Positions 6,037 through 59,916 of a stretch of DNA of 64,000 nucleotides are shown here, one piece after another (the first letter of the stretch is position 1; each line of letters starts with the position of its first letter). Both the position numbers and the translations under genes were made by a program. This stretch comes from Patescibacteria group bacterium (GTDB lineage Bacteria > Patescibacteriota > Minisyncoccia > Phycocordibacterales > JAKAEA01). The stretch lies in contig JAZKCY010000001.1 in NCBI GenBank assembly GCA_040387855.1, positions 104,396 through 168,395 of the forward strand, read 5' to 3'. The notes under the pieces are model-generated. The model saw nothing but the letters and a program-made list of their open reading frames with translations, did not search any database and was not told the DNA's origin.

Positions 6037-6063
6037 TCTCCTGAAATTTAGATATCCCCACAC

Positions 6064-6090
6064 AAAACCCCGATTTCTCGGGGTTTTGTT
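6064..6090 (+). terminator. rho-independent terminator after rpsG
   Basis: AAAACCCCGA-TTTCT-CGGGGTTTTG hairpin followed by a T-run. Confidence 0.6.
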
Positions 6091-6101
6091 ATACTTGAGG
6101 T

Positions 6102-6428
6102 ATGAAAAACCTACCATTCCGCTATAAATTTGGATTAATTACATTAGCTCTGTACTTAATGATTGCTGGATTGCTGATAATCACTCATTTTGCGACGGTA
6201 CAAAACGTAGATGGATTAGGTGATTTCTCTATGGCAGGCTTCGTTCTACTAGTAATATCTCTTCCGGGAATACTTTTAGCTACAGGTTTTCCGTCTTTGG
6301 GTATTATTATGGGTGTTTTAGGTAATACTATTGCATATTTCTTGGTTGGATATGTAATTGGTTCAATTAATGATGTATTAAAAAAGCGAGAACTAACTTT
6401 AATTCGACAACCTGAGGATATAATATAG
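6102..6428 (+). CDS. small hypothetical membrane protein (3 TM) inserted between rpsG and fusA
   Basis: 108 aa hydrophobic ORF. The alternative-frame ORF 5804-6127 is treated as spurious. Confidence 0.4.
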   Translation: MKNLPFRYKFGLITLALYLMIAGLLIITHFATVQNVDGLGDFSMAGFVLLVISLPGILLATGFPSLGIIMGVLGNTIAYFLVGYVIGSINDVLKKRELTLIRQPEDII

Positions 6429-6509
6429 ACTTTTCGCTTTGTTTATATTACAATCACCCTTACTTATTAAGAGGCCACACCTCAAAATTTTTATTATCAA
6501 TCAGTTTAT

Positions 6510-8660
6510 ATGCAAAGAGACTATCCGTTAGAAAGAGTACGTAATTTCGGTATTATTGCCCACATCGACGCAGGTAAGACCACTACGTCAGAACGAATCT
6601 TGTTTTATACAGGAATGAGCCATAAAATCGGTGAAGTTCACGAAGGAGAAACAGTTACCGACTGGATGGAACAGGAACGAGAGCGAGGTATTACTATTAC
6701 CGCCGCTGCTATTACTTGTTTCTGGAATCCTTCATACATGGGAGATGATGTTTCAAAGAAGCATCGTTTCAATGTTATTGATACTCCTGGACATATCGAC
6801 TTTACCGCAGAAGTGAAGCGCTCATTGCGAGTACTCGACGGTGCCGTAGTGGTATTTGACGGTGTGGCAGGTGTAGAACCTCAATCAGAAACCAACTGGC
6901 GATATGCCGATGACGACAATGTGCCTCGAATCTGTTTCATCAACAAGCTTGATCGAATGGGTGCAAGTTTTGATCGATCATTCCAATCTATTATTGATCG
7001 ACTCAATCCAAACGCAGTTCGAGTTCAAATTCCAATTGGAACTGAATCAGATTTCGAAGCTGTTATCGACCTTCTCAAAATGAAGGCCTACTATTTCGAA
7101 GGAGATATGGGTATTAAGATCATCGAAAAAGAAATTCCTGAGGATTACAAGGCAGAAGCAGAGAAATATCGAGCTATTCTTGTTGAAAAGATTGCAGAAC
7201 AAGATGACGAGATGCTTACAGCATACCTTGATGGAAAAACTGACTTTCCTATTGATCAATTGAAAGCAGTTCTACGAAAGGCTTGCCTTCAGGTAAAGCT
7301 TATTCCGGTATTTACTGGATCTGCCCTTAAAAACAAGGGAGTTCAGCTTGTACTCGACGGAGTTGTCGATTATCTTCCAGGTCCAAAGGATGTTCCTCCA
7401 GTTCGAGGTCTTGATCCAAAGGATGGAACTACCGAAATCTTCCGAAACGCCTCAGATGAAGAACCTTTTGCCGCTCTTGCATTCAAACTTCAAAACGATC
7501 CATTCGTAGGTCAGCTTACCTTCTTCCGAGTATATTCAGGAACAATTGAAGCAGGATCTTATATTTACAACGCATCTACTGGAGATAAAGAGCGTTTAGG
7601 CCGAATTGTACGACTTCAAGCAGATAAGCGAGAAGAAGTGAAAAAAGTGTTTGCTGGAGAAATTGCCGCAGCCGTAGGTCTTAAAACTGCAAAAACTTCT
7701 CATACCTTCGCAGATGAAGCAAATCCTATTATTCTTGACCCTATTAAGTTCGTAGAACCTGTGGTTTCACAGCGAATCGAGCCTAAAACAAAGGCAGATC
7801 AGGAAAAGATGGGTACAGCTATGAAAAAGCTTTCTGACGAAGATCCAACCTTTAAGATCAGTTCAAATACAGAAACAGGAGAAACTATTATTTCAGGTAT
7901 GGGTGAATTGCACCTAGAAATCATGGTTGATCGAATGAAACGAGAATTCGGCGTAGAAGCAAACGTAGGTAAGCCACAAGTGGCATATCGAGAGACCATT
8001 ACTGGTACTTCAGAGGCTGAACACAAGTACATCAAACAGTCTGGAGGTAAAGGTCAGTACGGACACGTTCGAATCACTCTTAAGCCAATGGAGCCGCTTG
8101 TAGAGGGTGCTAAGATGCCAAAGAACGTAAAGCGATATGAAGACTTTGAATTCATCGATTCTATTAAGGGAGGAGTTATTCCACAGGAATTTATTCCTGC
8201 AGTAGAAAAGGGAGTGCACGAAGCTATGGATCGTGGAATTCTCGCAGGATTCAAGATGGTAAATGTTTCTTGTGAACTTACATTCGGTTCATACCACGAT
8301 GTGGACTCTTCAGAACTCGCATACAAGATTGCAGGATCTCAGGCCTTCCAAGACGGTGCAAAGCGTGCAAAACCTGTTATTTTGGAGCCTATTATGAAAG
8401 TAGTGGTTACAGTTCCACAAGAATTTTTTGGAGATATTACTGGAAGTCTTTCAGCAAAACGAGGTCTTATTGAAGGAGATACTGAGCGCCCAGGAGGACT
8501 TAAAGTTATTACTTCTAAAGTACCGCTTTCAGAAATGTTCGGATATGTAAGTCAGGTTCGATCAATGACCAAGGGACGAGGAAGTGTAGATATGGAATTT
8601 AGTAACTACGAAATCGTGCCAGGAAACGTAGAAAAGACTATTATCGAAGCTCGAAAATAG
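6510..8660 (+). CDS. fusA: elongation factor G
   Basis: N-terminal [10 protein letters not shown]-domain motif, 716 aa. Confidence 0.95.
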
Positions 8661-12369: not shown

Positions 12370-13563
12370 ATGGCAGAAGTATTCGATCGCTCAAAACCAC
12401 ACGTTAACGTGGGTACTATCGGACACGTTGACCACGGAAAGACAACTCTTACCGCGGCTATTCTTAACGTGCTCGGTCTTTCAGGACAGACAGTTAAGAT
12501 GAAGAACGTTAATGATATCGACTCAGCGCCTGAAGAAAAGGCACGAGGTATTACTATTGCGCTCTCACACAATGAGTACTCAACAGTAAATCGACATTAC
12601 GCTCACATTGATGCTCCAGGTCACGCCGACTACATCAAGAACATGATTACTGGTGCCGCTCAAATGGACGGTGCTATCCTTGTAGTAGCAGCAACTGACG
12701 GAGTTATGCCACAGACACGAGAACACATTCTTCTTGCTCACCAGGTGGGTGTACCTAAGATTATCGTGTTCCTCAACAAAGTAGACATGGTTGATGACCA
12801 GGATCTTATTGACCTTGTTGAAGAAGAAGTCCGAGATCTTCTTACAAAAAATGATTACGACGGCAAAAATACTCCTATTATCCGAGGTTCAGGCCTTAAG
12901 GCTCTTGAAGCAAAGGATATTAATGATGAATGGGCACAGAAAGTTCTAGAACTTACAAAGACTTTGGATGAATTCATCCCTGTTCCTGTTCGAGACACAG
13001 AAAAGCCTTTCCTTATGCCAGTAGAAGACATCTTCTCTATTGAAGGACGAGGAACTGTGGTTACTGGAAAAATTGAACGAGGAATGATTAAGGTTGGAGA
13101 AGACGTAGAAATCGTTGGACTCAAGCCTACAGCAAAGACAACTGTTACTGGTATCGAAATGTTCAACAAGCAGTTGAATGAAGGTATGGCAGGAGACAAT
13201 GCCGGAATTCTCGTTCGAGGTCTTAAGAAAGAAGACATCACTCGAGGTCAGGTTCTTGCTAAGCCAGGATCTGTAGTTCCTCATACAGACTTCGAAGCAG
13301 AAGTATACATCTTGAAGAAAGAAGAAGGAGGTCGACACACTCCATTCTTTACAGGATACAAGCCACAGTTCTACATCCGAACAACTGACGTTACTGGAGA
13401 AGTAACACTCGCAGAAGGAGTAGAAATGGTTATGCCAGGAGATACAGTTACCTTTAAGGTAAAGCTTGTAGCACCAGTTGCTCTTGAAAACAACACACGA
13501 TTTGCTATCCGAGAAGGAGGAAAGACTGTGGGAGCGGGAGTTGTAACAAAGATCGTAGCATAA
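12370..13563 (+). CDS. tuf: elongation factor Tu
   Basis: [10 protein letters not shown] motif, 397 aa. Confidence 0.95.
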
Positions 13564-13616
13564 GTATAGGTTCGAGTTTCATATCGAAACTTGAAGTTCA
13601 TTAACAACAAAGCATC

Positions 13617-13979
13617 ATGACTGAAGCAACGACAAAAAAAACATCCCGAAAAGCAGCACCTAAGAAAGATGGTATTCAGCGACTACGTATTCGCGTACGA
13701 GCCTACGAATACAAGATTCTCGATGTATCTGTAAAACAAATTATGGATACAGCACTTCGTTATGATGCTCAGGTTGTTGGACCTATTCCACTTCCTACAG
13801 AAATCAAGAAGTACACCGTGAACCGATCTGCATTCGTATATAAGAACGCGCGAGAGCAGTTTGAAATGCGAACTCACAAGCGATTGATTGATATTATCAA
13901 TCCTTCAGCTAAGATCATTGAATCTCTTACCAACCTCAACTTGCCATCTGGCGTCAATATCGACGTTAAGATTATCTAA
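13617..13979 (+). CDS. rpsJ: 30S ribosomal protein S10 (with a short basic N-terminal extension)
   Basis: [13 protein letters not shown] core matches S10. Confidence 0.9.
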
Positions 13980-15726: not shown

Positions 15727-16578
15727 ATGAAAACATACCGACCAACAACAAAATCACGCCGAAATATGACCTCCATCAACTATGGAGACTATTTAACAGC
15801 GTCAGAACCACAGAAGTCACTTACTCATGGTTTCAAGCGATCAGTAGGACGCAACCATCATGGTAAAGTAACAACTCGACATAAGGGTTCAGGCCACAAG
15901 CGACTCTATCGAGATGTTGATTTCTCATACAACAAGTATGAAATCCCTGCAAAGATTGCAACTATCGAATATGATCCAAACCGAACAGGATTTATTGCAC
16001 TTGCAGTATATGCAGACGGAGAAAAGCGATACATTCTCGCTCCAAAATCAATGCGAGTAGGAGATACTTTCATTGTATCTGAGAAGGCAGATGTAAAGCC
16101 TGGAAACAGACTTCCATTAAGCAAAATCCCTGTAGGAACATTTGTATATAACGTAGAATTAAAGAAGAACGGAGGAGCAAAGATTGCTCGATCAGCAGGA
16201 AACTTCGTAGAAGTGATCGGTCATGATGCAGGATTTGCATTCATCAAAATGCCTTCAAGTGAAGTTCGACGAGTTGTTGATACAGGATTTGCATCAGTAG
16301 GAACCGTATCAAACGATGAAAACCGACTTGTTAATCTTGGAAAAGCGGGACGAAGTCGATGGTTGGGAATTCGACCAACAGTTCGAGGTACTGCCATGAA
16401 CCCAGTAGACCACCCATACGGAGGAGGAGAAGGACGACAGGGACGAGGAACTCGACGAGCAAAGTCTGTATACGGAAAGCCAACAGGAAAGGGACAGAAG
16501 TCACGACGAGCAAAGAAGTACTCAAACGTCTTCATTGTTTCTCGACGAAAAGTTGGAAAGAAGAAGGACAACAAATAA
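15727..16578 (+). CDS. rplB: 50S ribosomal protein L2
   Basis: 283 aa with an intact C-terminus, L2 family. Confidence 0.95.
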   Translation: MKTYRPTTKSRRNMTSINYGDYLTASEPQKSLTHGFKRSVGRNHHGKVTTRHKGSGHKRLYRDVDFSYNKYEIPAKIATIEYDPNRTGFIALAVYADGEKRYILAPKSMRVGDTFIVSEKADVKPGNRLPLSKIPVGTFVYNVELKKNGGAKIARSAGNFVEVIGHDAGFAFIKMPSSEVRRVVDTGFASVGTVSNDENRLVNLGKAGRSRWLGIRPTVRGTAMNPVDHPYGGGEGRQGRGTRRAKSVYGKPTGKGQKSRRAKKYSNVFIVSRRKVGKKKDNK

Positions 16579-16706: not shown

Positions 16707-17618
16707 ATGGGAGAACTCGTGAACGACAAGCTTCCGATTCGTTGGTCAGGCGAGAAGCTGGTGGCATGCACTCACAGCGGACGGTTTCATGGTGATGAAA
16801 TCCATGCTGCCGGCGTCTTGGCTGCCCGCGGCATGGTTAACGAGTTTCGGCGGAGCCGAGACCCTGCAGTGCTCGCCACGTGTGATCTGCGTTTCGACGT
16901 GGGCTACATGTACGATTCAGCCACTATGGACTTCGACCACCATCAAGACGGTGGAGCCGGTGTTCGGGACAACGGTGTGCCGTATGCATCGGCCGGGCTT
17001 ATCTGGGCTCACTTCGGCCATGAGTTGTGCAACGACGATGCCGAGGTACATGCAGAGGTCGACAGGATCCTGTTCCAGCCGATCGACGCACGGGATGTGG
17101 GCTACGACAAGCACATCAAGGCTGGCCAGGGGCTCGTCTACGGCATTTCCGACGACATCCGTCGTCGCAACCCGCCGCCGTTTAGTGACGTAAATTCGGA
17201 CGCTGTCTTCTTAGAGGTGGTGGAGGAGGCCAGGCGTCGTATTGTCGCGGAAGTCGCACTCGTGACGACCGATCTCCGGATCATTCCTCCGTATATCGAG
17301 CGAATGCTCGCTGTTGCGGATACGCCGGGGCTGCTCGTGCTCGACATCGCCTACGACTGGCCCAAGGTTATGCAGAAGTACGCCCCGAACATCTCGGTGA
17401 TCGTCTTTCCGAGCGAAGACGAGAGCGGCTGGAGAGTTCAGTCGGTCAACCTGCAGAAGAGACCGTTGCCTCGTTTATGGGCTGGCAAAAACGGCGCGGA
17501 CATGGTGAAAGCCTCGGGTGTGGCAGACGCACAGTTCTGCAACGCTAAGGGTTATCTCGCCAGTGCCCAAAGCATGGAAGGCGCCGTGGCTTTAGCAGAA
17601 ATCGTGCTTCGAATATAG
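16707..17618 (+). CDS. MYG1/UPF0160-family metal-dependent hydrolase (3'-5' exonuclease-type), high GC (about 59%)
   Basis: Contains CTHSGRFHGDE, RSRDP, CDLRFDVG, DHHQ and SAGLIWAHFGH, matching the conserved MYG1 motifs across the full length. Composition is foreign relative to the surrounding ribosomal-protein genes. Confidence 0.85.
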   Translation: MGELVNDKLPIRWSGEKLVACTHSGRFHGDEIHAAGVLAARGMVNEFRRSRDPAVLATCDLRFDVGYMYDSATMDFDHHQDGGAGVRDNGVPYASAGLIWAHFGHELCNDDAEVHAEVDRILFQPIDARDVGYDKHIKAGQGLVYGISDDIRRRNPPPFSDVNSDAVFLEVVEEARRRIVAEVALVTTDLRIIPPYIERMLAVADTPGLLVLDIAYDWPKVMQKYAPNISVIVFPSEDESGWRVQSVNLQKRPLPRLWAGKNGADMVKASGVADAQFCNAKGYLASAQSMEGAVALAEIVLRI

Positions 17619-17619
17619 G

Positions 17620-17655
17620 AGGAGATCGACTCGTCGGTCTTGCTCCTTTTTTTTA
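17620..17655 (+). terminator. rho-independent terminator after the high-GC MYG1 gene
   Basis: GGAGATCGAC...GTCGGTCTTGCTCC imperfect hairpin followed by T8. Confidence 0.5.
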
Positions 17656-17681
17656 TACCTCTACAGTGATACGATATATCT

Positions 17682-18629
17682 ATGTTTACTACTATCTACA
17701 TTCCCACAAGAATTCAAAACGATACTGCATCAGCAATTTTTATATTAAAGAAATATGGCCGAGAAAAATTTCCAGGGATTGAAAACGCAAAGATAGAAAT
17801 TAGATCTGTTATACCTGTAGGTTTTACTGAAGAAGCTTTGGAAAAAGAGGGGATAGTACTTGTTGATATTGGAAAGGGTAAATTTGATCACCATGGCTCA
17901 GAAGTACAAATTACTTCAACCGATCTCGTATGTAAATTCTTGGGTGTTATAGATAATCCAGCATTAGAAAAGCTTCGAAAATATGTGGAGCGATGTGACT
18001 TTTTTGGTAAAGGCATTATTTCAAATGATCCATTAGATAGAGCTTTTGGATTGCCAGGGCTCCTTATAAATTTAAATAAAAAGCATAACTCAGAGCCAAA
18101 TTCTGTGTACCCAATAATTGCCGAACTTTTTGATGCTCACGTTTTAGAAGAAGAACAGCGTACAGTAGGGTTACCAAAAGAAGTTGAAGAAAAAACCACA
18201 GCTGGATTGGTGGATATATTTAGCCTCAAGCATCATGGCAAAAATATTAAGTGCATCTATATTGCTTCAGATAATATCAGCCTTTCAGGATACCTTCGTT
18301 CTCAAATGGGCGGAGCATATGATGTTGCGATTATTCATATGAGCACAGGACATATAAATATTATGACTCGTCCTGCCAAGCGTGTTGATTTACATGCTCT
18401 CATTGCTGTCATACGCCGCTCAGAGCTTATGAAACGTGGTGACGTGAAGCTCTACACCAATGATCTTCTTTCTCAGACAGGCCGCTTTGATAAGGTCCCT
18501 CAGTGGTATTATGATCCTGCTACAAACTCACTTCAAAACGGAGGGATCAATCCAGGGCAAATAGAAAAGACTGTACTCTCTCGAAAAGAAATAATTGAAT
18601 TGGTGAAAGTGGGATTGGGAGATAGATAA
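17682..18629 (+). CDS. divergent MYG1-like paralog (low GC); the N-terminal His/Asp metal motif is not conserved
   Basis: VLVDIGKGKFDHHG aligns to the DVG..DHHQ region of the upstream MYG1, but the THxGxFHxDE block reads TRIQNDTASA. Confidence 0.5.
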   Translation: MFTTIYIPTRIQNDTASAIFILKKYGREKFPGIENAKIEIRSVIPVGFTEEALEKEGIVLVDIGKGKFDHHGSEVQITSTDLVCKFLGVIDNPALEKLRKYVERCDFFGKGIISNDPLDRAFGLPGLLINLNKKHNSEPNSVYPIIAELFDAHVLEEEQRTVGLPKEVEEKTTAGLVDIFSLKHHGKNIKCIYIASDNISLSGYLRSQMGGAYDVAIIHMSTGHINIMTRPAKRVDLHALIAVIRRSELMKRGDVKLYTNDLLSQTGRFDKVPQWYYDPATNSLQNGGINPGQIEKTVLSRKEIIELVKVGLGDR

Positions 18630-18637
18630 TATTTTTT

Positions 18638-19087
18638 ATGATTATAGAACCAGATCAGCACTATTATGAAAATGGGAAATATGTGTGGACTCCTGAAAAA
18701 AGGGCTGCTGCGTGGGAAAAATGTTTTACTGTTTTAGAACAAGAAGCGACATCTGGAAAATTTAAAAAGATAGTGATGCTTATTGGCATTCCAGGAGCAG
18801 GGAAGAGTACCTACACTAAAGCTCATGATAGTGAGTCTACTATTATATTTGATGGAGTCTTTGTAAATCCGAAAGAACGGGAACGAGCTATTACTATTGC
18901 ACATTCAACAGGCCTTCCGATTGAAGGGGTGTGGCTTAATACACCTTTAGAAATATGTTTGGAAAGAAATGCTCAAAGAACTGATGATAGAAAGGTACGG
19001 GAGGATCATGTAACTATGATGTATGAGAATTTACAGAAAAATAAGCCTCGTTTAGAAGAGGGATATACGACATTTATAGAGCAATAA
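18638..19087 (+). CDS. small P-loop NTPase/kinase (AAA_33 / polynucleotide-kinase-like)
   Basis: 149 aa with Walker A GIPGAGKST, a downstream D/R-rich lid, and a size and architecture resembling Pnk/zeta-type kinase domains. Confidence 0.55.
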   Translation: MIIEPDQHYYENGKYVWTPEKRAAAWEKCFTVLEQEATSGKFKKIVMLIGIPGAGKSTYTKAHDSESTIIFDGVFVNPKERERAITIAHSTGLPIEGVWLNTPLEICLERNAQRTDDRKVREDHVTMMYENLQKNKPRLEEGYTTFIEQ

Positions 19088-19093
19088 AGACAC

Positions 19094-19121
19094 TTGACAA
19101 TATATATAGCTGTGCTATAAT
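19094..19121 (+). promoter_or_regulatory. consensus sigma70 promoter (TTGACA, 16-nt spacer, TATAAT) for the 19172 gene
   Basis: Perfect hexamers read directly from the sequence. Confidence 0.55.
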
Positions 19122-19171: not shown

Positions 19172-19855
19172 ATGACCGCTTCGTCCACCCCCAGCGTCGC
19201 TTCCGCCAAGATCCTGATGTCCAGCCTCCGCACCGTGAACCGGTTCGTGCTGAACTTCCAGGTCGAGGGCCTGCGCCCGCCGAGCAACTTCCCGCCGATC
19301 CGCGAGTGCGCCCCCCTCACCACGGGGACCAAGGCGCCCAAGCAGGTCGAGCGCGGCGAGAAGCTCGTCGAGCGGACCCGCGAGGTCTGCTCGCTCGATG
19401 CCCCGAGCATCATCAGCGCCTGCTTTGACGCCGGCCTGATCTACTGCAAGATGCTCATGCTCCCCAAGGGTCCGCCCACGGTCAGCATGCGCTTCAAGCG
19501 GCAGACGGAGCAGACCGACGCGGTCGCCCCGAACGACGCCAACTACCTCACGACGGAGATCGAGACGATCTACGGTCCGTGGATGGTGATGCTCCAGGGC
19601 TCGCTCCGGCTCGACTGCAACTTCGACCCCTACGGGCTCACCGTGGAGGAGGAGGCCGAGTACCTGCGGAAGCGCTACCGGAACGCCGGCACGCACAACG
19701 CGACGGAGATCGAGCGCAAGGTCAAGCAAGAGGCCACGGGCACGCCGTACCTCCTGACCGGGACGCACTACGTCGAGGCCCTGCGGCTCACCCCGCCGGC
19801 CTACCACAGGCTGTTCGCCCACGAGGGTGCGCTCCTGCTCGACGGCGAGCTCTAG
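19172..19855 (+). CDS. hypothetical protein, very high GC (about 65%, strongly GC3-biased), unknown function
   Basis: 227 aa with normal amino-acid composition and GC-ending codons. The overlapping minus-strand ORF 19148..19969 is judged to be a high-GC antisense artefact. Confidence 0.6.
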   Translation: MTASSTPSVASAKILMSSLRTVNRFVLNFQVEGLRPPSNFPPIRECAPLTTGTKAPKQVERGEKLVERTREVCSLDAPSIISACFDAGLIYCKMLMLPKGPPTVSMRFKRQTEQTDAVAPNDANYLTTEIETIYGPWMVMLQGSLRLDCNFDPYGLTVEEEAEYLRKRYRNAGTHNATEIERKVKQEATGTPYLLTGTHYVEALRLTPPAYHRLFAHEGALLLDGEL

Positions 19856-19953: not shown

Positions 19954-19980
19954 TTGACATGCTCCACACTTTCGTATAAT
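19954..19980 (+). promoter_or_regulatory. consensus sigma70 promoter (TTGACA, 15-nt spacer, TATAAT) re-initiating the rpsS-rplV-rpsC... operon
   Basis: Hexamers read directly from the sequence. Confidence 0.55.
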
Positions 19981-20031
19981 ATGTGACTCACGCTCTGAAC
20001 TAGAGCTCTTTTGTTTCATATATATCTATCC

Positions 20032-20385
20032 ATGGCACGATCACTCAAAAAAGGACCATACGTTGACGAAAAGCTTCTCAAGAAAATTGAGGGCAAAAAG
20101 CCACAGGCTACTGGGGTTATTAAGACCTGGGCACGTGCAAGTCAGATTTCACCAGAAATGGTAGGTTTTATCTTTGGCGTTCACAACGGTAAGGATCATA
20201 TCGAAGTTTTGGTATCTGAAGAAATGGTGGGTCATCGTCTTGGTGAATTTTCTCCAACAAAGAAATTCCTACGACACGGAGGTAAGATGCAGAAGGAGCT
20301 TGAACAGAAAAAGAAGGAATCAGAAATTGCAGCAGCGCAATCTGCTAAGGCTGCAACAGCTGATGCCGGTGCTAAGAAAAAATAA
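20032..20385 (+). CDS. rpsS: 30S ribosomal protein S19 (Lys/Ala-rich C-terminal extension)
   Basis: [12 protein letters not shown] matches S19. The start is placed at the internal ATG of the ORF listed from 20011. Confidence 0.9.
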
Positions 20386-46345: not shown

Positions 46346-47641
46346 TTAGAAGAACTTGAGCATGAAGGTGATGATGATGAACAATACACCCAGGATGCTC
46401 ACGCTCCAGATGATGTAGCCAAAGAACGAAGGCATCGAGATCCCGCGCCGTTTGGCAATGGCGAAGATCATAAAGTTTGGCGCATTGCCAATGTAGGTGA
46501 GTGCCCCCATATACACGGCGCCAAGACTGATGGCCTTCACGAGGTCTGGTGATTGTGCTGTCAGGTGGGGAAGCGAGGTCGAACCCGTTGTCGATTCGGC
46601 CATCGACATGAATACCAGGAACGTCGGCGCATTGTCGAGCACCGACGAGAACACACCGGTTGCCCAGAAGTACTGTGCTGGCTCGCTCACTCCAAGCGAC
46701 GAACCTGAATGCTGCAGCAGCTGCAGTGCTGGGACCATTGTCATGAAGATCCCGGCGAATACGACTGCCACCTCCACTATCGGTCCGAACTCGAAGTTGT
46801 TTTTTTGTCGCGCCTCTTTTGCAATTGGCGCGAGCTTCGAGTACACGAGTGATATGACGATGGTGATCACGAAGATCACTTCACGCCACGGGCTCGCTAC
46901 CGCAATGACACTGCCTACGATCACCATCATGAGCACTGCATTGCCAAGGCCGATGAGCATGAGTGGCTCCACATGCTCTTTGTCTTGAGCAATATCTTCG
47001 TTGGACTCCTTGTTGTAAAAGTACTTGTCGATCACGAGGTACACAGCGAGCAACACGATGCCGCTCACCAACCAGTAGACCCAAAGATTTCGGGCAAACC
47101 AGAAGAATTCGATTCCTCGCAAGTAGCCGAGGAAGAGCGGTGGGTCACCGAGGGGAGTGAGTAACCCTCCGAGATTGCTTACCAAAAAGATGAAAAACAC
47201 GACAGTATGCCGCACGTGTTTTCGTTCTTGGTTGCTTCGCAATAGTGGATAGATCATGAGGATCGAGGCACCCATTGTGCCCACAACACTCGCCATGATG
47301 TATCCGCTCGCAAGCATCATCGCATTGCGGCCCGGCGTTGCTCGCAGATCACCCTTGATGTGGATGCCTGAGGCAACGATGAACAGCGCAGCGAGGAGCA
47401 GTATGAACTGCACAAATTCGATCCCCGCATGCACGATCAAGTTTCGATCGTGCTGTGCCACGTAGATGGCAACTGGTAAGCCGAGCGTGAGGATCACGCA
47501 CAATTTCACCCAGTTTTTTTCCCACGCATGCTTGGTAAAGCTCACGAGGGGAAGGACTGCGATGAGGCCGAGCAGCACCGCAAACGGCACTACCGACCAC
47601 AGTGTTGGAATCCACGAACTTGCTGCAAGTGATGAAATCAC
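46346..47641 (-). CDS. ArsB/NhaD-superfamily permease (putative ion/anion transporter), elevated GC (about 54%)
   Basis: LTPLGDPPLFLGY matches the TPxGDPPN-type motif, with multi-TM topology. A GTG start sits behind a GAGAGGG Shine-Dalgarno. Confidence 0.6.
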   Translation of the reverse strand: MISSLAASSWIPTLWSVVPFAVLLGLIAVLPLVSFTKHAWEKNWVKLCVILTLGLPVAIYVAQHDRNLIVHAGIEFVQFILLLAALFIVASGIHIKGDLRATPGRNAMMLASGYIMASVVGTMGASILMIYPLLRSNQERKHVRHTVVFFIFLVSNLGGLLTPLGDPPLFLGYLRGIEFFWFARNLWVYWLVSGIVLLAVYLVIDKYFYNKESNEDIAQDKEHVEPLMLIGLGNAVLMMVIVGSVIAVASPWREVIFVITIVISLVYSKLAPIAKEARQKNNFEFGPIVEVAVVFAGIFMTMVPALQLLQHSGSSLGVSEPAQYFWATGVFSSVLDNAPTFLVFMSMAESTTGSTSLPHLTAQSPDLVKAISLGAVYMGALTYIGNAPNFMIFAIAKRRGISMPSFFGYIIWSVSILGVLFIIITFMLKFF

Positions 47642-47777
47642 GACACCCTCTCTGTAAGAACAATTGAATCCGTTCAATCGACGGTCAGACTTTTAAATAC
47701 CACATTATATATATAAAGTCAATATACTAGCAAATAAAAAACCATGAAGCGCGATGGTTTGTCGCGCACTCATGGTG

Positions 47778-48173
47778 TTAAATACTTAGCCCGATTTCTA
47801 TCCGCAAAAGCTCTGAACACCTCTGCATGTCTTCAATCGGTAAGACATGTGCTTCCTTGAAATCTCGATGTCGATCTCTTACTTCTGGGATATCAAACAC
47901 CGACTTCTTGATCATCCGGAAGCAGGCAGGATCATTTTTGATGATTGCCCAGTCTTCACCGGAACCGATGATGATTCCGCATACAAAAGCGATCCACATG
48001 TCCCACGCCTTGAACGAGTGTAGCTCGTCGTTGGGAACTTCCGGTTTCCACGTGGGCAGTGGGCCTGGGTTAAACTTTGCCTGTCCGCGTTGGAAGTAAA
48101 TCATCGAGGTCGTGGGATTGTTTCTTCCATACACCCACAGACACTCAACCGCTGGCAGTTTCACAGACATCAA
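47778..48173 (-). CDS. hypothetical protein, moderately elevated GC
   Basis: 131 aa ORF followed by an ACCAT...ATGGT hairpin and T-run. Confidence 0.4.
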   Translation of the reverse strand: MMSVKLPAVECLWVYGRNNPTTSMIYFQRGQAKFNPGPLPTWKPEVPNDELHSFKAWDMWIAFVCGIIIGSGEDWAIIKNDPACFRMIKKSVFDIPEVRDRHRDFKEAHVLPIEDMQRCSELLRIEIGLSI

Positions 48174-48245
48174 TACCTCCTCGGTTTTGTACAGTAAAGG
48201 TACCGTAGATGATAGTACTAAAATCCAATAAAAAGGCCAGTCGAT

Positions 48246-48449
48246 TTATTTAACTAGATATTTGCCGGCAACACTGAGTGCAAATGAAGGTAAAATAATA
48301 CACACAGTAGTTTGAAGTAATCTAATAAGCACAATGTTGAAGACGGTGCTTCCATCACCATCAGGAGGAGTTGTTGCAATTAGAAGGATGCCAATAATAC
48401 CGAAAGCTATAGATGCGTAGATAAATATTTTAGTAGCAATAGGTTGCAT
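48246..48449 (-). CDS. small membrane protein
   Basis: 67 aa, 2 TM. Confidence 0.35.
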   Translation of the reverse strand: MQPIATKIFIYASIAFGIIGILLIATTPPDGDGSTVFNIVLIRLLQTTVCIILPSFALSVAGKYLVK

Positions 48450-48460
48450 AGAAGTAGTAA

Positions 48461-48664
48461 TTATTTTTTATATTCCAAAACATCACCTGGCTGGCAGTCT
48501 AATGCTTTGCAGATTGCATCAAGAGTTGTAAGTCGTACTGCTTTTGCTTTGCCGTTTTTCAAGATAGAAAGATTGGCCATAGTAATGCCCACTTTTTCTG
48601 TGAGTTCAGTAACGCTCATTTTTCGCTTTGCAAGCATAACGTCAATGTTGATAATAATTGCCAT
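48461..48664 (-). CDS. small XRE-family HTH transcriptional regulator (YozG-like)
   Basis: MSVTELTEKVGITMANLSILKNGKAKAVRLTTLDAICKALDCQPGD. Confidence 0.8.
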   Translation of the reverse strand: MAIIINIDVMLAKRKMSVTELTEKVGITMANLSILKNGKAKAVRLTTLDAICKALDCQPGDVLEYKK

Positions 48665-48671
48665 AAATAGT

Positions 48672-49190
48672 TTATACAGTTAATTCGTTTTCCTTTTTAA
48701 TATCAACAACATTCTGTAAGAGTTTTTGTAGTACACCTGCAAAGGTGGCAATGATAAGTGGTGAACATACAAACGTCATTGCAAAAAGAATGAGTCCAGG
48801 TGCATCATCTCCATCAGCAATAAAAAATGCGAGCGGCATAATAAATACATAACACAAGGTCATACTACCTGCGCAGTACTTTATTGTTTTTAGAGCATTC
48901 ACTGATTCCTGAGAGAACGCAGTGTTCTTATCAATGTATGTTAAAAGCTTGAGACCTTGATAGAGTGCGATGAAAAAGGGAATAGCACTGAGATATAGTC
49001 CTACAAATGCGAAAGGTTGCGACTCTTTAATTCCTGGCCACTCAAGTGCCATTCCTCTATATATGTGAGGGAATGCAAAAATGCAGAGGGCGAGTACCGC
49101 GAGTCCAAATACGATAATGACTGCTTTTAAAAATAATGTTGATCCTTTATTCATAAAACTATGATTAGTTGATGATAAAGAGCTTAGCAT
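48672..49190 (-). CDS. DUF2975-like membrane protein (the usual partner of YozG-like HTH)
   Basis: 172 aa, 4 TM, with the conserved gene pairing. Confidence 0.5.
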   Translation of the reverse strand: MLSSLSSTNHSFMNKGSTLFLKAVIIVFGLAVLALCIFAFPHIYRGMALEWPGIKESQPFAFVGLYLSAIPFFIALYQGLKLLTYIDKNTAFSQESVNALKTIKYCAGSMTLCYVFIMPLAFFIADGDDAPGLILFAMTFVCSPLIIATFAGVLQKLLQNVVDIKKENELTV

Positions 49191-49265
49191 GGCGTATATC
49201 GTAAGTCAATAAATATATATTGTTTTATTATTTTGACTATAAAAAAAGCACTAATGACTTTAGTG

Positions 49266-49892
49266 CTATTTCGATGTATTGCGAACTGCGGCGAAGCATG
49301 TATTCTCCCAAGGGACCCTGAGATCCTGCCCTCCGGTCATGAAGTAGTTTGGAGCGAGTTGGAGTACTCGCTTGTTACTAATCTTCATGAGTACTGGGTT
49401 GTACCCAACGTGGGGTGGGCTCGTGTTGGTTTTATCAAACACCATTTCCCCAAGTGCCAGTACGATGTGGTCGTTCTGGAACTCGGGGTATTTGGCGCCG
49501 AAGGCCAAGAGCTCGACGAGATTTGCCGGACGGCAGTCGTTGTCGACGATGATCTTTAGGATGTCGTTCGTACGCATACTGCGTTCGAACGAAAACATGA
49601 CCATCGTTTCTTCAGCGCTCGCTCGAGTGGTGTCCGAAATTGTACGCGGAATTCGCGGGTTAACCTCCACATACGTACCACGCTCGATATACTCATGCGA
49701 GCTGAGTGTCCGATCAACGGCAACCGAAAATTCTTTCGTTCGAACTTCTGGTCCCGATTCCTTGATCGGGTTCGTCATCGCTTTTTCCTGGGCCTCCTTC
49801 ATCAACCGCTCGCCCTCGTTGTGGGGCGCGCAGCCGATGGTGAGGCCGAGGATCATGACGATGAGGAACGACAGACGGGGAAGCAGTGACAT
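49266..49892 (-). CDS. lipoprotein of unknown function, high GC (about 57%)
   Basis: Signal peptide with lipobox LTIGC. Confidence 0.55.
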   Translation of the reverse strand: MSLLPRLSFLIVMILGLTIGCAPHNEGERLMKEAQEKAMTNPIKESGPEVRTKEFSVAVDRTLSSHEYIERGTYVEVNPRIPRTISDTTRASAEETMVMFSFERSMRTNDILKIIVDNDCRPANLVELLAFGAKYPEFQNDHIVLALGEMVFDKTNTSPPHVGYNPVLMKISNKRVLQLAPNYFMTGGQDLRVPWENTCFAAVRNTSK

Positions 49893-50058
49893 GGTTTCTC
49901 CTTGCAGGGCGCACTGGCTTTTAGTTTCTGCACATGCAGTTACTTCTTGCCAGTAAAGAACGGATCATCAGTACTACATCATATTTAATAATATAAGTCA
50001 AATATAGTTTTTAAATAAAAAACCGCACTACATACACATTGTGTAGACAGGCGGCGAA

Positions 50059-51132
50059 TCAAGTTTGAGGTTTACCTAAAGAACGGAGCAGTCTGTAGTG
50101 GGACACAATGGCCAACCACATCGTGTCGTGTGAGTGGTAGGTCAGTTCGTGGCGTTTGCAGACCCGTCGTACGAGCCTGCAAATTTTGGGGTAGTGGATG
50201 TGGGAAATCCTGGGGAAGAGGTGGTGCTCGATCTGGTAATTTAATCCTCCTAGGAACCAGGTGAGCACTTTGTTTTTTGGAGCGAAGTTGGCCGTCGTGA
50301 GCACTTGATGCTCCGCCCACGCATTTTCCATTGCTCCCTGTTCGGGGTCTGGAAGCGGGAACTTTGTTTCTTCCACTACATGGGCAAGTTGGAATACGAC
50401 GGCAAGTACCACACCCATACACCAACTGGCGAAAAGGTACACGAGCACTACCTGCCAGAACGGATGGAAGAGCGAAGGGATGACAAACGCCCATGTATAG
50501 AACAGAAGCTTGCCTCCAATGAACGTTGCTAGATGCACTCCTCGTGGGCGCGCGAACGGATATTTCCCGATCCGTCCACGTATGACGTTGAGGAAGTCAT
50601 CGAAGAGTTGCCACTTCACAGGAACCAATCCGTACACAAACCACAAATAAATGTGTTGCACGCGGTGAAACCAAAGCCTGGGTTGCGTGGGCGCGAGACG
50701 CCCTAAGATCCCAGTATTGATGTCATCGTCATGCTCCGCAATATTTGTGTATGTGTGATGGACGATGTTGTGCTTGTGCGTCCACACGTACGAACTTCCC
50801 CCTATGGCATCGAGTGAGAATGCAGCGAGACGGTTGATCCATCGGTGTTTTGAAAACGCCTGATGATTCCCGTCGTGCTGAATGCAAAACCCGATTCCTG
50901 CCATCGCCAATCCAATGCTCATGGCGAGCAACATCGCTTGCCACCACGCGGTGGCAAAGAATACGAGCACGATGTAGCTCGCTGCTAGCCACAGCATGAG
51001 CGTGACCGCCTTCACGTAGAGGTCGGCAGTAGCATGGCGACTGCGCTTGGTCATCGCAAAGTAGCGATCCACCGTTTTTTTGAGGTCAGAGAAAAAATCG
51101 CTACGCTTCCGAAACTTGACTGGGGTGATCAT
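50059..51132 (-). CDS. membrane fatty-acid desaturase family protein, high GC
   Basis: Three His boxes: HDGNH, HNIVHH and HQIEHH. Start at the ATG behind GAAAGGAGGG. Confidence 0.8.
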   Translation of the reverse strand: MITPVKFRKRSDFFSDLKKTVDRYFAMTKRSRHATADLYVKAVTLMLWLAASYIVLVFFATAWWQAMLLAMSIGLAMAGIGFCIQHDGNHQAFSKHRWINRLAAFSLDAIGGSSYVWTHKHNIVHHTYTNIAEHDDDINTGILGRLAPTQPRLWFHRVQHIYLWFVYGLVPVKWQLFDDFLNVIRGRIGKYPFARPRGVHLATFIGGKLLFYTWAFVIPSLFHPFWQVVLVYLFASWCMGVVLAVVFQLAHVVEETKFPLPDPEQGAMENAWAEHQVLTTANFAPKNKVLTWFLGGLNYQIEHHLFPRISHIHYPKICRLVRRVCKRHELTYHSHDTMWLAIVSHYRLLRSLGKPQT

Positions 51133-51237
51133 GACACCCTCCTTTCGTTGTAATGCAATTGGTGCTGGTCCAACCAAAGTATACCATCTTGGATGTATAT
51201 TAATTTGAAAGCAGAATCGCAAAGAAATAAAAAGTAC

Positions 51238-52008
51238 CTATACCTCAGAATTCAATATCATTTCAATTTCTTTTTTTACATCCTCATCACTCTTTGTAGG
51301 CATGAGATCTCCTTTTTGATTTCCATAATTACCAGCTTGAGCATGATTCATTCCTTCAATAGGGAAGTCTCTCTGTGACGTTGGAAGATTGCTGCTATAT
51401 GCTGAGAGTTTTTCAGGAGTTAATACACCATCAAGAGAACCATGAATATTTACTACCTTAAAGTTTTTACTTGATACATCGCTGTTGCAGTAGGTTCCTA
51501 CTAAGAGTAATGTCTCAAACTTTTCTGCATGATTTTTTGCATACTCACATGCCATTGCTCCTCCCATTGAATGACCGCCAAGAGTCCATGTTTTTATTTC
51601 AGGATGTGTATCAATTATTTTACCAGCTTGGCCAATACTAAATATCGCGAGATTTAAAGGAGGTTTAGTAACAAACAATATAGAAGGAGAAGAAGTGCTG
51701 GTGACAATACTTTCTAATTTATAAAAGTAAGCTTGAGGATCAACTTTTGCTCCAGGATAATAGATAACTCCTTTTGTAGATGTTGTCGCATTAGGAGCAA
51801 TCTCCCAGTATTTTGGATGCTCAGTTACTGTTATAAGATCTTTATTTGTATTTAAAAATTCTTGAAGTTTAGTTTGATCGGCTTTGTAAATTTGCTTTGC
51901 CCAGATTACAAAAGAAATAACAGCGATCAATAGGAGCGTTATAAGCGTAAGAACTATTTTCCTCCAGAGCTTCATTTTCTTAGGGGTAGGTTGGATAGCG
52001 GTTTGCAT
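51238..52008 (-). CDS. alpha/beta-hydrolase (lipase/esterase-like) with N-terminal TM anchor
   Basis: GHSMGG nucleophile elbow. The start is placed at the internal ATG so it does not overlap the upstream gene. Confidence 0.6.
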   Translation of the reverse strand: MQTAIQPTPKKMKLWRKIVLTLITLLLIAVISFVIWAKQIYKADQTKLQEFLNTNKDLITVTEHPKYWEIAPNATTSTKGVIYYPGAKVDPQAYFYKLESIVTSTSSPSILFVTKPPLNLAIFSIGQAGKIIDTHPEIKTWTLGGHSMGGAMACEYAKNHAEKFETLLLVGTYCNSDVSSKNFKVVNIHGSLDGVLTPEKLSAYSSNLPTSQRDFPIEGMNHAQAGNYGNQKGDLMPTKSDEDVKKEIEMILNSEV

Positions 52009-52138
52009 AAAATATATTATAAAGTGTTTTTTGTTTGTAGGATATTCATAAATAAAAAACTGCGAGATGCATAGAGATGTGAATCTCTCGGCTTTCTCGC
52101 AATAAGTTGGTTGGATGATCCTAACCGATCTTTTCCCT

Positions 52139-52816
52139 TCATTCCTCACTAAGAGGAAATTGGGTCGGAAGTTTCTCGACATGACGTACCATGACATCGA
52201 AACCTCTAAGAATTGTTGGCACGTCTACGCCCGAAAGCTTCACGTGTCCGAATCCCATCTGCCCCATGTCGAGAATCGTGACAACCGTCTCATTTGTCTC
52301 CACCTTGACCTCGATCCTTAAGATGCAGGAAAACTCGGAATCACCGATGCCTTCCAGCCTGCTCTTGAAGTGAGGTAACATCCCGAGCTTGGTGGCGTTG
52401 GACAAGACCCTGTCAGGGATTTCATACATCGCCACGACTTTGCACGGACCGGAGCGCATCTTGAAATACGTAGGGGCCCCAGGTTGCTTGTCGCCGAAGA
52501 CCCGCACGAAATCGTCCGCATCAGTCTCAACTTTATGCTGTGCTGTCACGGGTAAGGACAGCACTAAGGATGTGTCATCCTTAAATTCGGCTTTCCCTCC
52601 ATGAACACCGAATTTAGCCAGAAAGTCGCCGGCAATGTCTTCACCCAGCCTACGTGCTCCTTCTGGTGCCTGAAGATACCATTCCCTCTGGTCACCAGTG
52701 AACCCCGTTCCGATCAAGCGCACTTGAGGATTTCCCGATTTCACAATGCCTCCAAGGCAAGGGTTGTTTGATGAGAACTCTAAGAGGAAATTATAATAAA
52801 ATACATGAGTTGTCAA
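52139..52816 (-). CDS. hypothetical protein, high GC
   Basis: 225 aa ORF with coding-like composition and no recognised family. Confidence 0.45.
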   Translation of the reverse strand: MTTHVFYYNFLLEFSSNNPCLGGIVKSGNPQVRLIGTGFTGDQREWYLQAPEGARRLGEDIAGDFLAKFGVHGGKAEFKDDTSLVLSLPVTAQHKVETDADDFVRVFGDKQPGAPTYFKMRSGPCKVVAMYEIPDRVLSNATKLGMLPHFKSRLEGIGDSEFSCILRIEVKVETNETVVTILDMGQMGFGHVKLSGVDVPTILRGFDVMVRHVEKLPTQFPLSEE

Positions 52817-52899
52817 TTTTATTGTGAAAGTATCTAAAAGAAATAAAAATCCGCAAGAGAGTCGAGGAGAGAATTGAATCTCTCGCGGCTTTCTTGCGG

Positions 52900-53238
52900 C
52901 TACTCATCTTGCATGTGAAGCGACAACCTGATCATCGTGAACCATCTCGCAGGCACGAAATGTGTCGTCTTGAATTCCCCGGGTGTTCGTTCGTGGGGGA
53001 AGTTCACGACCTTACCCGTCTCAGGGGTGTAGGTGGTCAGCCCCATTTCGTTGGGGTTGCAGTTTATGAACTCGGAGTAGAGCTCATCAGGGTCGTTGGG
53101 ATGTACACCCATCACCCCTCGTTCATCTGCCCGGAATCTCCGGATGATCTCGATGACCTCTCCGACTTCATGCCAGCCCCAACTCGCATATGGTTCTGGA
53201 ATGTCTTTGAATCGATGCAAAGCGGGTAACACTTTCAC
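52900..53238 (-). CDS. hypothetical protein, high GC
   Basis: 112 aa ORF with a GTG start behind an AAGGA Shine-Dalgarno. Confidence 0.4.
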   Translation of the reverse strand: MKVLPALHRFKDIPEPYASWGWHEVGEVIEIIRRFRADERGVMGVHPNDPDELYSEFINCNPNEMGLTTYTPETGKVVNFPHERTPGEFKTTHFVPARWFTMIRLSLHMQDE

Positions 53239-53344
53239 GTTTATTCCTTACCACCTTATGGTGGCTGCATAGGAATCTGTTCTTACCTTGGGCTCCCAAG
53301 GTTTCTGCCATTGGTTATATAAAAAATAATAGAAGACTGCAAGT

Positions 53345-53372
53345 AATAAAAAGCCCCGCTAGCATGCCGGGG
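53345..53372 (-). terminator. rho-independent terminator overlapping the stop codon of the 53359 gene
   Basis: CCCCG-CTAGCATGC-CGGGG followed by CTTTTTATT on the - strand. Confidence 0.5.
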
Positions 53373-53739
53373 TGAGACTGCGGGCTCGATTGATGAGCAC
53401 TTCCAAATAGCTGTGCACATCATAATCGAACCACTTCTTTGGACTGTTCGGGTTGAGAATCTTGTCCCTGCTAAACGCCACATGCCCGAGTGGTTCACAC
53501 GCATCCGCAAGATCAGGATAACCTCTCGGCCAGGTTGGCGGATGATGATATCCGGTATAGAGTGTCGCGTCGATAAGGCACGGCTTGTGGTGTGGCAGGG
53601 AACTGAGCTTCACATCCCATGGTACAACTTTAAGCGTGATGAACCCTCGGGCTTTTATGATCCCGAAGATGATCGGCGACAACATTCGCCGCTGGTCCAA
53701 TGGAACGTCGTGAACGACAGTGAGCAACGTAAGAATCAT
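53359..53739 (-). CDS. hypothetical protein, high GC
   Basis: 126 aa ORF with an ATG start behind an AGGAGGG Shine-Dalgarno. Confidence 0.45.
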   Translation of the reverse strand: MILTLLTVVHDVPLDQRRMLSPIIFGIIKARGFITLKVVPWDVKLSSLPHHKPCLIDATLYTGYHHPPTWPRGYPDLADACEPLGHVAFSRDKILNPNSPKKWFDYDVHSYLEVLINRARSLTPAC

Positions 53740-56770: not shown

Positions 56771-56817
56771 AGGTGGCTTGCCACGAGTGATCCTGCGTTC
56801 TTGCGCGGCGAATCGAG

Positions 56818-57226
56818 TGGAGATGGCGGGAATCGAACCCGCGTGCAAAAGAAGTTCTTAAATGGGTCTACAATGTATAGAGAATCTTAACCACCCGAAG
56901 GTGGGTTTAAACGCAGTGGGTAAAAAGATAATCAAAATTCCCACGTTGCCGAGTCCCTTTATTTCGATCAATCATCGGAACGAGTGAAAGATCTATCTCA
57001 ACGATATACCACCAACACTTAGTAAGTTGAGAAAAAACTAAGGTGGCGTCGTCTGGCTACCGTTTAAAGGGGTTTACGCGAGAGCGAAAGCGAAGTTACT
57101 TGCGTAAGGCGAAGCAACTGCTGTTCGTGCTGATTTTGCACTTGAAGTTTCCGTCAGATTTAAGAGTTAACGGTGCTCTACATTGCGCAGATAAGAAACA
57201 AACTCTTGTCTAGGCCGATCATCCCC
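56818..57226 (-). ncRNA. ssrA: tmRNA (transfer-messenger RNA)
   Basis: The 5' GGGGATG pairs with the 3' CATCTCC-A, including the G3:U70 alanine identity pair. The T-arm reads GCGGGTTCGATTCCCGC. There is an internal in-frame tag ORF ...AVASPYASNFAFALA* ending in TAA. smpB lies immediately upstream. Confidence 0.85.
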
Positions 57227-59835: not shown

Positions 59836-59842
59836 AAAAATG

Positions 59843-59916
59843 TCCACCCTCTTGGATTCGAACCAAGGACCACCGAGGTATAAGCTCGGTGCTCTAACCA
59901 ACTGAGCTAAGGGTGG
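59843..59916 (-). tRNA. tRNA with anticodon UAU (Ile-type, AUA-reading), 74 nt, CCA not encoded
   Basis: Manual fold: acceptor CCACCCT/AGGGTGG, D-arm GCTC-AGTTGGTTA-GAGC, anticodon arm CCGAG-CTTATAC-CTCGG, variable loop TGGTC, T-arm CTTGG-TTCGAAT-CCAAG, discriminator A. Confidence 0.75.

Follow-up and report, generated by a model that had tools for sequence, protein, structure and literature searches.

We analysed a stretch of 64,000 nucleotides (the window; positions 104,396 to 168,395 of contig JAZKCY010000001.1, assembly GCA_040387855.1) from a low-GC (0.40) metagenome-assembled genome (MAG) of the Patescibacteria, or Candidate Phyla Radiation (CPR), and found a cassette of four genes (gene 1, gene 2, gene 3 and g4) within the S10 ribosomal-protein operon, between rplB and rpsS. 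On balance, the cassette is likely to be an RNA-end processing module in rRNA or tRNA maturation, with gene 2 as an active phosphoesterase and with an odd GC content that is maintained rather than the result of recent transfer. Within the DHH phosphoesterase superfamily, gene 2 (NCBI locus tag V4519_00685, on a contig of 981,549 bp) represents a distinct family of old origin that is closest in sequence to the MYG1 family, and it is not a decayed duplicate of MYG1. We surveyed the neighbourhoods of 83 gene 2 loci (the window and loci from L002 to L086). A separately assembled Logan contig, L001, has an arrangement identical to that of the window and possibly comes from the same sample. The gene order is S10, L3, L4, L23, L2, gene 1, gene 2, gene 3, g4, S19, L22, S3, L16, and the cassette and its borders consist of the following features:

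15727 to 16578, plus strand: rplB (ribosomal protein L2), the upstream border of the cassette; an open reading frame (ORF) whose identical counterpart in L001 matches Pfam Ribosomal_L2_N/C, and 79% identical to L2 of L002.
16707 to 17618, plus strand: gene 1, a GC-rich and fast-evolving gene for a predicted 3'-5' RNA exonuclease of the MYG1/UPF0160 family (PF03690; 303 amino acids).
17622 to 17651, plus strand: a terminator-like hairpin and T-run between gene 1 and gene 2 (consensus match only).
17682 to 18629, plus strand: gene 2 ('G2'), from an unannotated, Patescibacteria-restricted phosphoesterase family of the DHH/DHHA1 fold (315 amino acids; remote MYG1 homologue).
18638 to 19087, plus strand: gene 3, a compact P-loop kinase (AAA_33, PF13671) of the polynucleotide/tRNA-kinase type.
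19094 to 19121, plus strand: a promoter-like site upstream of g4, with the perfect sigma-70 consensus TTGACA-16-TATAAT and a TG (12/12; consensus match only).
19172 to 19855, plus strand: g4, an orphan gene of 227 amino acids with extreme GC content, the last before rpsS (assigned by codon-position periodicity).
19954 to 19982, plus strand: a promoter-like site ahead of rpsS, from which transcription of the ribosomal operon would resume (10/12; consensus match only).
20032 to 20385, plus strand: rpsS (ribosomal protein S19), the downstream border, identified by its translation and by a Pfam Ribosomal_S19 match on the identical gene in L001.

The gene 2 family comprises 157 database clusters, and a scan of species-representative genomes retrieved 146 relatives, nearly all from MAGs of Patescibacteria/Parcubacteria and a few with other automated labels. 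Gene 2 matched no Pfam family even at E ≤ 1 and had no match in NCBIfam or PADLOC, while a profile of the family retrieved only spurious His-tag matches from PDB sequences. A preliminary description of this stretch had presented genes 1 and 2 as tandem MYG1 paralogues. That label does not apply in its usual meaning: a BLASTP comparison of the two proteins gave nothing significant (the best match was the FDHH stretch, with an E value of 1.2), and a local hidden Markov model (HMM) of MYG1 matched no gene 2 homologue. Homology was found at the profile level, where hhalign aligned the gene 2 profile with MYG1 over 214 columns (Prob 91.1%, E 1e-6) and 12 control profiles from unrelated neighbour genes gave at most 1.2%. 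Because profile-level homology is present without the similarity expected of ordinary paralogues, gene 2 is a superfamily-level relative of MYG1. What remains of the tandem-paralogue description is this remote relationship, seen in the profiles and in the predicted fold; pairwise and profile alignment did not show gene 2 to be unrelated to MYG1.

An alignment of 42 members of the gene 2 family contained 30 invariant columns. P8 and D14 are invariant within P-T-R-x-Q-x-D-T, where R10, Q12 and T15 are each conserved in at least 90% of sequences; D62 within D-I-G and D69-H70-H71 are likewise invariant, and D106 is conserved in at least 90%. Other invariant residues are R104, G109, K110, S114, D116, D119, F122, G210-G211 and G223 (followed by H224, again at least 90%) and, near the C-terminus, W275, D278, T281, N282, N286 and G287. 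Motifs specific to the family are PTRxQxDT, RDDFFGKG..S.DPLDRAFG, GYLRS..GG, SGH and WYYDPATNSLQNGG. In the hhalign register, D14 of gene 2 falls on D30 of MYG1, Q12 on H28, DIG on DVG and FDHH on FDHHQ, and a hydrophobic residue occupies the position of H23, so that both motif-I histidines of MYG1 are missing. The motif strings reported in the preliminary description are present (THSGRFHGDE at residues 22-31 of gene 1; TRIQNDTASA at residues 9-18 and DIGKGKFDHHG at residues 62-72 of gene 2). Its view that the motif of gene 2 is degenerate is not confirmed: the two histidines are indeed lacking, but because PTRxQxDT is conserved across the gene 2 alignment, the N-terminal string is a signature of the family.

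Of the DHH superfamily motifs, gene 2 has the D-H-H of motif III and the aspartates of motifs II and IV; motif I contains a single invariant Asp (D14) where the superfamily has DxD. The predicted fold consists of a DHH domain and a DHHA1-like domain, with the C-terminal domain matching the DHHA1-like C-Ala domain, and the best structural matches were NrnA, pGpG/c-di-NMP phosphodiesterases, PAP phosphatase and exopolyphosphatase. In its predicted fold, C-Ala-like domain and DHH motif, gene 2 resembles the DHH/DHHA1 phosphoesterases (NrnA, pAp phosphatase, GdpP/PggH, RecJ/Cdc45, family II pyrophosphatase and PPX1), but it differs from them in lacking a sequence-level Pfam or PDB match, in its single motif-I Asp and in a long helical insert at residues 139-173. 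With MYG1 it shares the D-x-G...F-D-H-H block, one motif-I Asp, the two-domain layout and profile-level homology, but it has no Pfam match, no equivalents of H23 and H28, and invariant motifs of its own. We therefore regard gene 2 as a new variant of the DHH phosphoesterases at the level of a family, with no model in Pfam or NCBIfam. The family represents an unannotated DHH branch found almost only in MAGs of the Patescibacteria, and in one clade it lies inside the bacterial operon that is conserved most strongly.

The family is strongly constrained, with ratios of nonsynonymous to synonymous divergence (dN/dS) of 0.02-0.12. MYG1 adjoins gene 2 at 9 of the 83 loci, and no MYG1 gene is nearby at the remaining 74. 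Several homologues are longer than gene 2 itself, with an N-terminal extension of about 140-260 amino acids at 21/83 loci and a C-terminal extension of about 140-220 amino acids at 6/83. Wherever Pfam or NCBIfam recognised an extension, it was a 2H phosphoesterase (LigT_PEase, 2_5_RNA_ligase2, tRNA_lig_CPD or TIGR02258); for example, the fused domain of P0069 matched TIGR02258, 'RNA 2',3'-cyclic phosphodiesterase', with an E value of 1e-15. Because the fusions occur at either end, they argue for functional coupling between the 2H and gene 2 domains. The preliminary description had also suggested that gene 2 is a native, possibly catalytically altered paralogue or a regulatory or pseudo-enzyme partner of gene 1. 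A decayed paralogue or pseudo-enzyme is not supported: the low dN/dS, the 30 invariant columns, and the fact that the family mostly occurs without MYG1 and is often fused to 2H domains point to an independent enzyme family and not to a copy in decay.

The remaining neighbours of gene 2 are housekeeping genes with a tilt towards RNA and translation (S1, L2, S19, RNase III, TsaD and FtsH). A gene 2 homologue lies between rplB and rpsS, or adjoins them, at 11/83 loci; the insertion at this place is shared by several related lineages, with about 10 species besides that of the window. No mobile-element, integrase, transposase or defence genes were among the commonest neighbour families of the 83 loci.

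Gene 1 is a genuine, active-type MYG1, predicted to encode a 3'-5' RNA exonuclease. It matched PF03690 (MYG1_exonuc) with an E value of 2.4e-42 and 146.1 bits (cutoff 22.1), with residues 21-299 covering model positions 3-316 of 318. As the preliminary description had stated, the motif set is complete (T-H-x-G-x-F-H-x-D, D-V-G, F-D-H-H-Q and D-A-x-D-x-G), and gene 1 carries every residue that is invariant in an alignment of 41 homologues: H23, H28, D30, D64, G66, D77, H78, H79, Q80, D127, D130 and G132. A profile of its family matched 'MYG1 exonuclease' entries of the PDB with an E value of 6e-62. Eukaryotic Myg1, known from mouse and yeast, acts on RNA as a 3'-5' exonuclease in the processing of pre-rRNA and mitochondrial rRNA 3' ends, which links it to ribosome biogenesis (PMC6582341). 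Elsewhere in the Patescibacteria, MYG1 immediately precedes obg, the gene for a GTPase of ribosome assembly, and has normal GC content; gene 1 differs from these typical copies in being GC-rich, fast-evolving and located in the S10 operon. In loci L088-L092 (for example L090, 5001-6867), MYG1 is followed by obg and gatB, a linkage present in at least four contigs, and its GC content is typical of the genome.

Gene 3 starts 9 bp past the stop codon of gene 2 (a gap of 8 bp). It matched PF13671 (AAA_33) with an E value of 6.7e-14 and 52.8 bits (cutoff 27) and contains the Walker A motif GIPGAGKST. Its NCBIfam matches were weak and below threshold (Pnkp TIGR04075, 31.8 bits against a cutoff of 750; PSTK, 33 bits against 290).

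We propose that gene 2 would act as a metal-dependent phosphoesterase on RNA 3' ends or phosphorylated ends. Gene 2 retains the DHH motif, the aspartates of motifs II and IV and a motif-I Asp, and R-x-Q-x-D-T may stand in for the two motif-I histidines of MYG1. The 2',3'-cyclic phosphodiesterase, fused to gene 2 in about one third of species, would open a cyclic phosphate, and gene 2 would act next, beside the polynucleotide-kinase-like gene 3 and trimming by the MYG1 exonuclease of gene 1. Such a module could trim or heal the ends of rRNA or tRNA precursors or fragments, in maturation or repair, and the excised insertions that are abundant in CPR rRNA genes could supply its substrates; in CPR bacteria, 42% of the 16S and 77% of the 23S genes contain insertions of at least 100 bases (PMC9297842). 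From sequence and predicted structure we infer that gene 2 may be catalytically competent, act on RNA and contribute to ribosome biogenesis, which would make it a candidate for the machinery that removes or tidies insertions in CPR rRNAs. A literature search for links between DHH or 2H proteins and the ribosomal operon in CPR found nothing relevant.

The proposed module would resemble RNA end-healing enzymes (Trl1 KIN-CPD, bacterial Pnkp and ThpR/LigT) in the 2H domains that are fused to gene 2 relatives and in the presence here of a P-loop kinase, gene 3. It would differ from them in that no ligase was found in the cassette and a DHH-fold domain is new in such a context; in addition, gene 3 falls well short of the equivalog cutoffs, and other genomes do not have it beside gene 2.

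Several observations weigh against this reading of the cassette. The metal site of gene 2 may be different or missing, because two histidines of the metal-ligand type found in MYG1 are lacking. Genes 1 and 2 may not be co-transcribed, because the predicted terminator-like hairpin separates them. Among the 83 loci, gene 3 lies beside gene 2 in the window genome only and is therefore no conserved part of the module, and only about 13% of family loci are within a ribosomal operon. Finally, the mRNA folding z-scores (g4, -2.0; gene 1, -2.4; gene 2, +0.4) are based on only 20 shuffles each and are therefore weak and suggestive at most.

The main alternative for gene 2, which we consider possible but rather unlikely, is an NrnA/pAp-phosphatase-like enzyme or a cyclic (oligo)nucleotide phosphodiesterase that serves in the turnover of nanoRNA, pAp, c-di-AMP or 2',3'-cyclic nucleotide monophosphates or in signalling by them, with its position in the ribosomal operon being incidental. 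The best structural matches listed above are of this kind, and most members of the family lie outside ribosomal operons. 2H enzymes also hydrolyse 2',3'-cyclic nucleotides (PMC4201822). However, the closest sequence relative of gene 2 is an RNA exonuclease, MYG1, and there is recurrent linkage to genes for MYG1, S1, RNase III, L2/S19 and a kinase resembling Pnkp/PSTK. The fused 2H domains, moreover, match models of RNA 2',3'-cyclic phosphodiesterase and of the cyclic phosphodiesterase domain of tRNA ligase. These points favour a role in RNA-end processing over one in small-nucleotide turnover.

The base composition of the cassette was the second feature noted in the preliminary description, which gave about 59% GC for gene 1 and about 38%, like the host, for gene 2. 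Our measurements agree: GC content is 0.583 for gene 1, 0.377 for gene 2 and 0.404 for the window. By codon position, GC is 0.65/0.41/0.68 in gene 1 and 0.51/0.34/0.28 in gene 2, the latter resembling ordinary genes of the window (GC at third codon positions is abbreviated GC3 below). The most extreme gene is g4, with a GC content of 0.675 and codon-position values of 0.61/0.46/0.96 in a genome with a GC3 of about 0.28. Codon-position periodicity places its coding sequence on the plus strand, where the Logan gene caller had chosen an antisense ORF. The only detectable homologue of g4 is the syntenic gene of L002 (27% identity, E 7e-8); both large protein databases returned only g4 itself and one weak repeat match, and Pfam, NCBIfam and PADLOC gave no match. 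An AlphaFold2 model of g4 from the single sequence had a predicted local distance difference test score of 33 and was unusable.

Recent acquisition of gene 1, as proposed in the preliminary description, is not supported. L002 and L003 each have, between rplB and rpsS, a MYG1 gene, a homologue of gene 2 and one or two GC-rich genes of small size; gene 2 is 62% identical to that of the window in L002 and 48% identical in L003. MYG1 of L002 is 37% identical to gene 1 (dN/dS 0.33) and is also GC-rich (0.57 compared with 0.45 for its locus; GC3 0.63). In a neighbour-joining tree of 49 MYG1 sequences the two genes are sisters. Synonymous sites are saturated between the window and L002 (synonymous divergence, dS, about 1.3 to above 2, or not computable). 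Imported GC3 would therefore have decayed under the usual substitution regime of the genome, and because the L002 sister is GC-rich despite this saturation, the GC excess of gene 1 has been maintained and not just imported. In a search of 5.8 billion proteins the closest relatives of gene 1 were about 40-42% identical, and the two that we examined came from contigs of 42-45% GC. The GC excess of the GC-rich cassette genes starts and stops at the ORF edges; the 60-bp flanks have a GC content of 0.42-0.48, and AT-rich promoter-like or terminator-like elements lie between the genes. Gene 1 and g4 are atypical in composition, but they do not form a horizontally acquired island, as their orthologues are syntenic in L002 and L003 and no mobility genes are present. 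Rfam and tRNA scans found no RNA genes in the cassette, and a repeat search found no convincing target-site duplications or inverted repeats around it.

The model in which gene 1 was recently transferred from a high-GC donor and placed beside a native, decayed MYG1 paralogue acting as a pseudo-enzyme or regulatory partner is thus very unlikely and largely refuted by L002 and L003. It would account for a GC content 18 points above that of the genome, for a shift confined to the gene, for the terminator-like element that gene 1 has to itself and for the missing motif-I histidines of gene 2, and other GC-rich, probably acquired genes are present at 46-53 kb of the window. Against it stand the syntenic, GC-rich sister in L002 despite saturated dS, the lack of a donor closer than about 40-42% identity and the AT-rich, not donor-like, intergenic DNA on either side. 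Purifying selection on the gene 2 family is strong and its D..DHH is invariant; the family also mostly lacks a nearby MYG1 and is fused to a catalytic 2H domain.

Compositional anomalies of this kind recur across the gene 2 loci. We scored 400-bp blocks that exceeded the locus median by at least 0.10 GC within 1.3 kb of a gene 2 homologue. A GC-rich block was present beside gene 2 at 49/83 loci, compared with 10.6% ± 2.8% for control positions within these loci, and a GC-poor block at only 6/83. At 29/83 loci a directly adjacent ORF with coding-type periodicity was at least 0.08 above background GC, and 27 of these 29 partners were on the strand of gene 2. The partners belong to different families: MYG1 (window, L002 and L052), divergent gene 2 paralogues, and several orphan families without a Pfam match. 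MYG1 genes that do not adjoin gene 2 have a GC content typical of their genomes. In close genome pairs, dN/dS was 0.22-0.83 for partners, compared with 0.02-0.12 for gene 2 and ribosomal genes, as in the following examples:

L070 and L071: partner 63% identical in amino acids, dN/dS 0.51; gene 2 97% identical, dN/dS 0.02.
L068 and L073: partner 71% identical, dN/dS 0.39; gene 2 92% identical, dN/dS 0.05.
L017 and L024: partner 78% identical, dN/dS 0.28; gene 2 83% identical, dN/dS 0.06.

In five close genome pairs the partners were reciprocal best hits with dS equal to or below that of the flanking genes, and they are therefore vertically inherited. The GC and rate anomaly beside gene 2 is statistically robust. 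Because the neighbours are recurrently GC3-rich, fast-evolving and vertically inherited, whatever their family, a gene-specific force maintains their GC content. A stronger form of this idea, which we put forward tentatively and regard as doubtful, is that across Patescibacteria a locus-specific process, which would be new in bacteria, pushes any gene directly beside a gene 2 family member (MYG1, a gene 2 paralogue or an orphan) towards high GC3 and fast protein evolution even though the gene descends vertically. Candidate causes are gene-specific or targeted GC-biased conversion, targeted mutagenesis, and selection on mRNA or codons; in one candidate variant of the last, partners of an RNA-end-processing enzyme would have GC-rich, nuclease-resistant mRNAs.

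A sharp GC3 excess with fast protein evolution resembles hotspots of GC-biased gene conversion such as mouse Fxy, although we know of no description of this process acting in such a way on single bacterial genes. The partners are similar to genomic islands and to such hotspots in their gene-scale GC excess, mainly at third codon positions, and in their accelerated protein evolution. They differ in being vertically inherited, conserved in position, without amelioration despite saturated dS, and without mobility genes, and in that the effect depends on lying beside members of a single gene family throughout a phylum. The usual account, in which transferred genes later ameliorate, does not explain genes that are GC3-rich and fast-evolving, descend vertically and are tied to one neighbour in this way, and a GC anomaly alone should not be read as recent transfer. 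A literature search on GC-rich genes in Patescibacteria or on GC3 in CPR found nothing relevant.

We consider it very unlikely that the gene 2 neighbourhood is an integration hotspot whose GC-rich neighbours are repeatedly replaced from high-GC donors. The partner genes fall into many unrelated BLAST clusters, and each GC-rich gene of the cassette has promoter-like or terminator-like signals of its own. However, the partners in the five close genome pairs are reciprocal best hits whose dS does not exceed that of their flanks, and no integrase or transposase is among the commonest neighbour families. The effect is also one-sided (49 GC-rich loci and 6 GC-poor), though the Patescibacteria of the set span 31-68% GC.

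An assembly or binning chimera, in which high-GC reads were stitched into the operon, is extremely improbable: conserved ribosomal operons can seed chimeric joins in metagenome assemblies, but the GC blocks are whole ORFs flanked by AT-rich promoters and terminators, the same arrangement is present in the separately assembled L001 (with the reservation about its sample given above), and the low/high/low/high pattern recurs in L002, L003, L007, L017, L023, L024, L026, L032, L042 and L043, which come from different studies.

Two other explanations of the GC-rich partners were rejected. The partners are not detached 2H domains, since an HMM of the fused 2H domains matched none of them and instead matched four separate, low-GC 2H genes. 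The GC-rich blocks are also not non-coding structured RNA, as they show strong periodicity over codon positions (0.61/0.46/0.96) and a dN/dS that is lower in sense than in antisense.

Links among partner clusters by hhalign were weak (at most 78%). The genes just before S19, aligned from ten genomes, showed almost no conservation apart from a motif resembling '..IPxWVxER'. A motif of the type '(L/I)IPxWV(E/K)ER' was seen in small GC-rich genes before rpsS in L003 (7093-7683), L042 (5771-6277), L017 (2231-2782), L024, L026, L032 and L043. It is N-terminal in some genomes and C-terminal in others, which may point to a common domain that has been rearranged or circularly permuted.

The cluster of divergent gene 2-like paralogues aligned with the gene 2 profile at 99.2% in hhalign and has a GC3 of 0.73-0.85. 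In L011, L016, L025, L036, L059, L063 and L077, a canonical gene 2 homologue is in tandem with a divergent gene 2-like paralogue of 350-374 amino acids. The paralogue is often the GC-rich member, with 0.60 compared with 0.42 in L063 (5182-6273 and 6983-8065). Tandems of this type echo the theme of tandem paralogues of opposite composition.

Within g4, a repeat of 37 nucleotides occurs at 19528-19564 and 19678-19714. The 9-bp sequence CTAGAAAGG flanks g4 on both sides; this came from inspection by eye alone, and the repeat tool did not list it.

A second cluster of GC-rich genes (GC 0.50-0.53, GC3 0.56-0.67), interleaved with low-GC genes, lies on the minus strand of the window at 46346-53739. 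Among the GC-rich genes are those for a CitMHS_2 transporter (46346-47677) and a fatty-acid desaturase (50059-51222), together with four that have no Pfam match; the low-GC members are a DUF2975 gene and an alpha/beta hydrolase.

The ribosomal operons of the two syntenic loci have further peculiarities. In L002, L2 is split over two overlapping ORFs (6057-6915), and the place of S14, between L5 and S8, is taken by a DUF2283 gene (13488-13751). In L003, a 23S_rRNA_IVP gene lies between S3 and L16 (9485-9853).

The window also encodes, on the minus strand, a tRNA-Ile with the anticodon TAT (UAU) at 59842-59916. A UAU tRNA-Ile is a less common way to read AUA than a lysidine-modified CAU tRNA. 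A tmRNA gene (Rfam, 78 bits) is present on the same strand at 56815-57226, with the tag peptide AKSARTAVASPYASNFAFALA.

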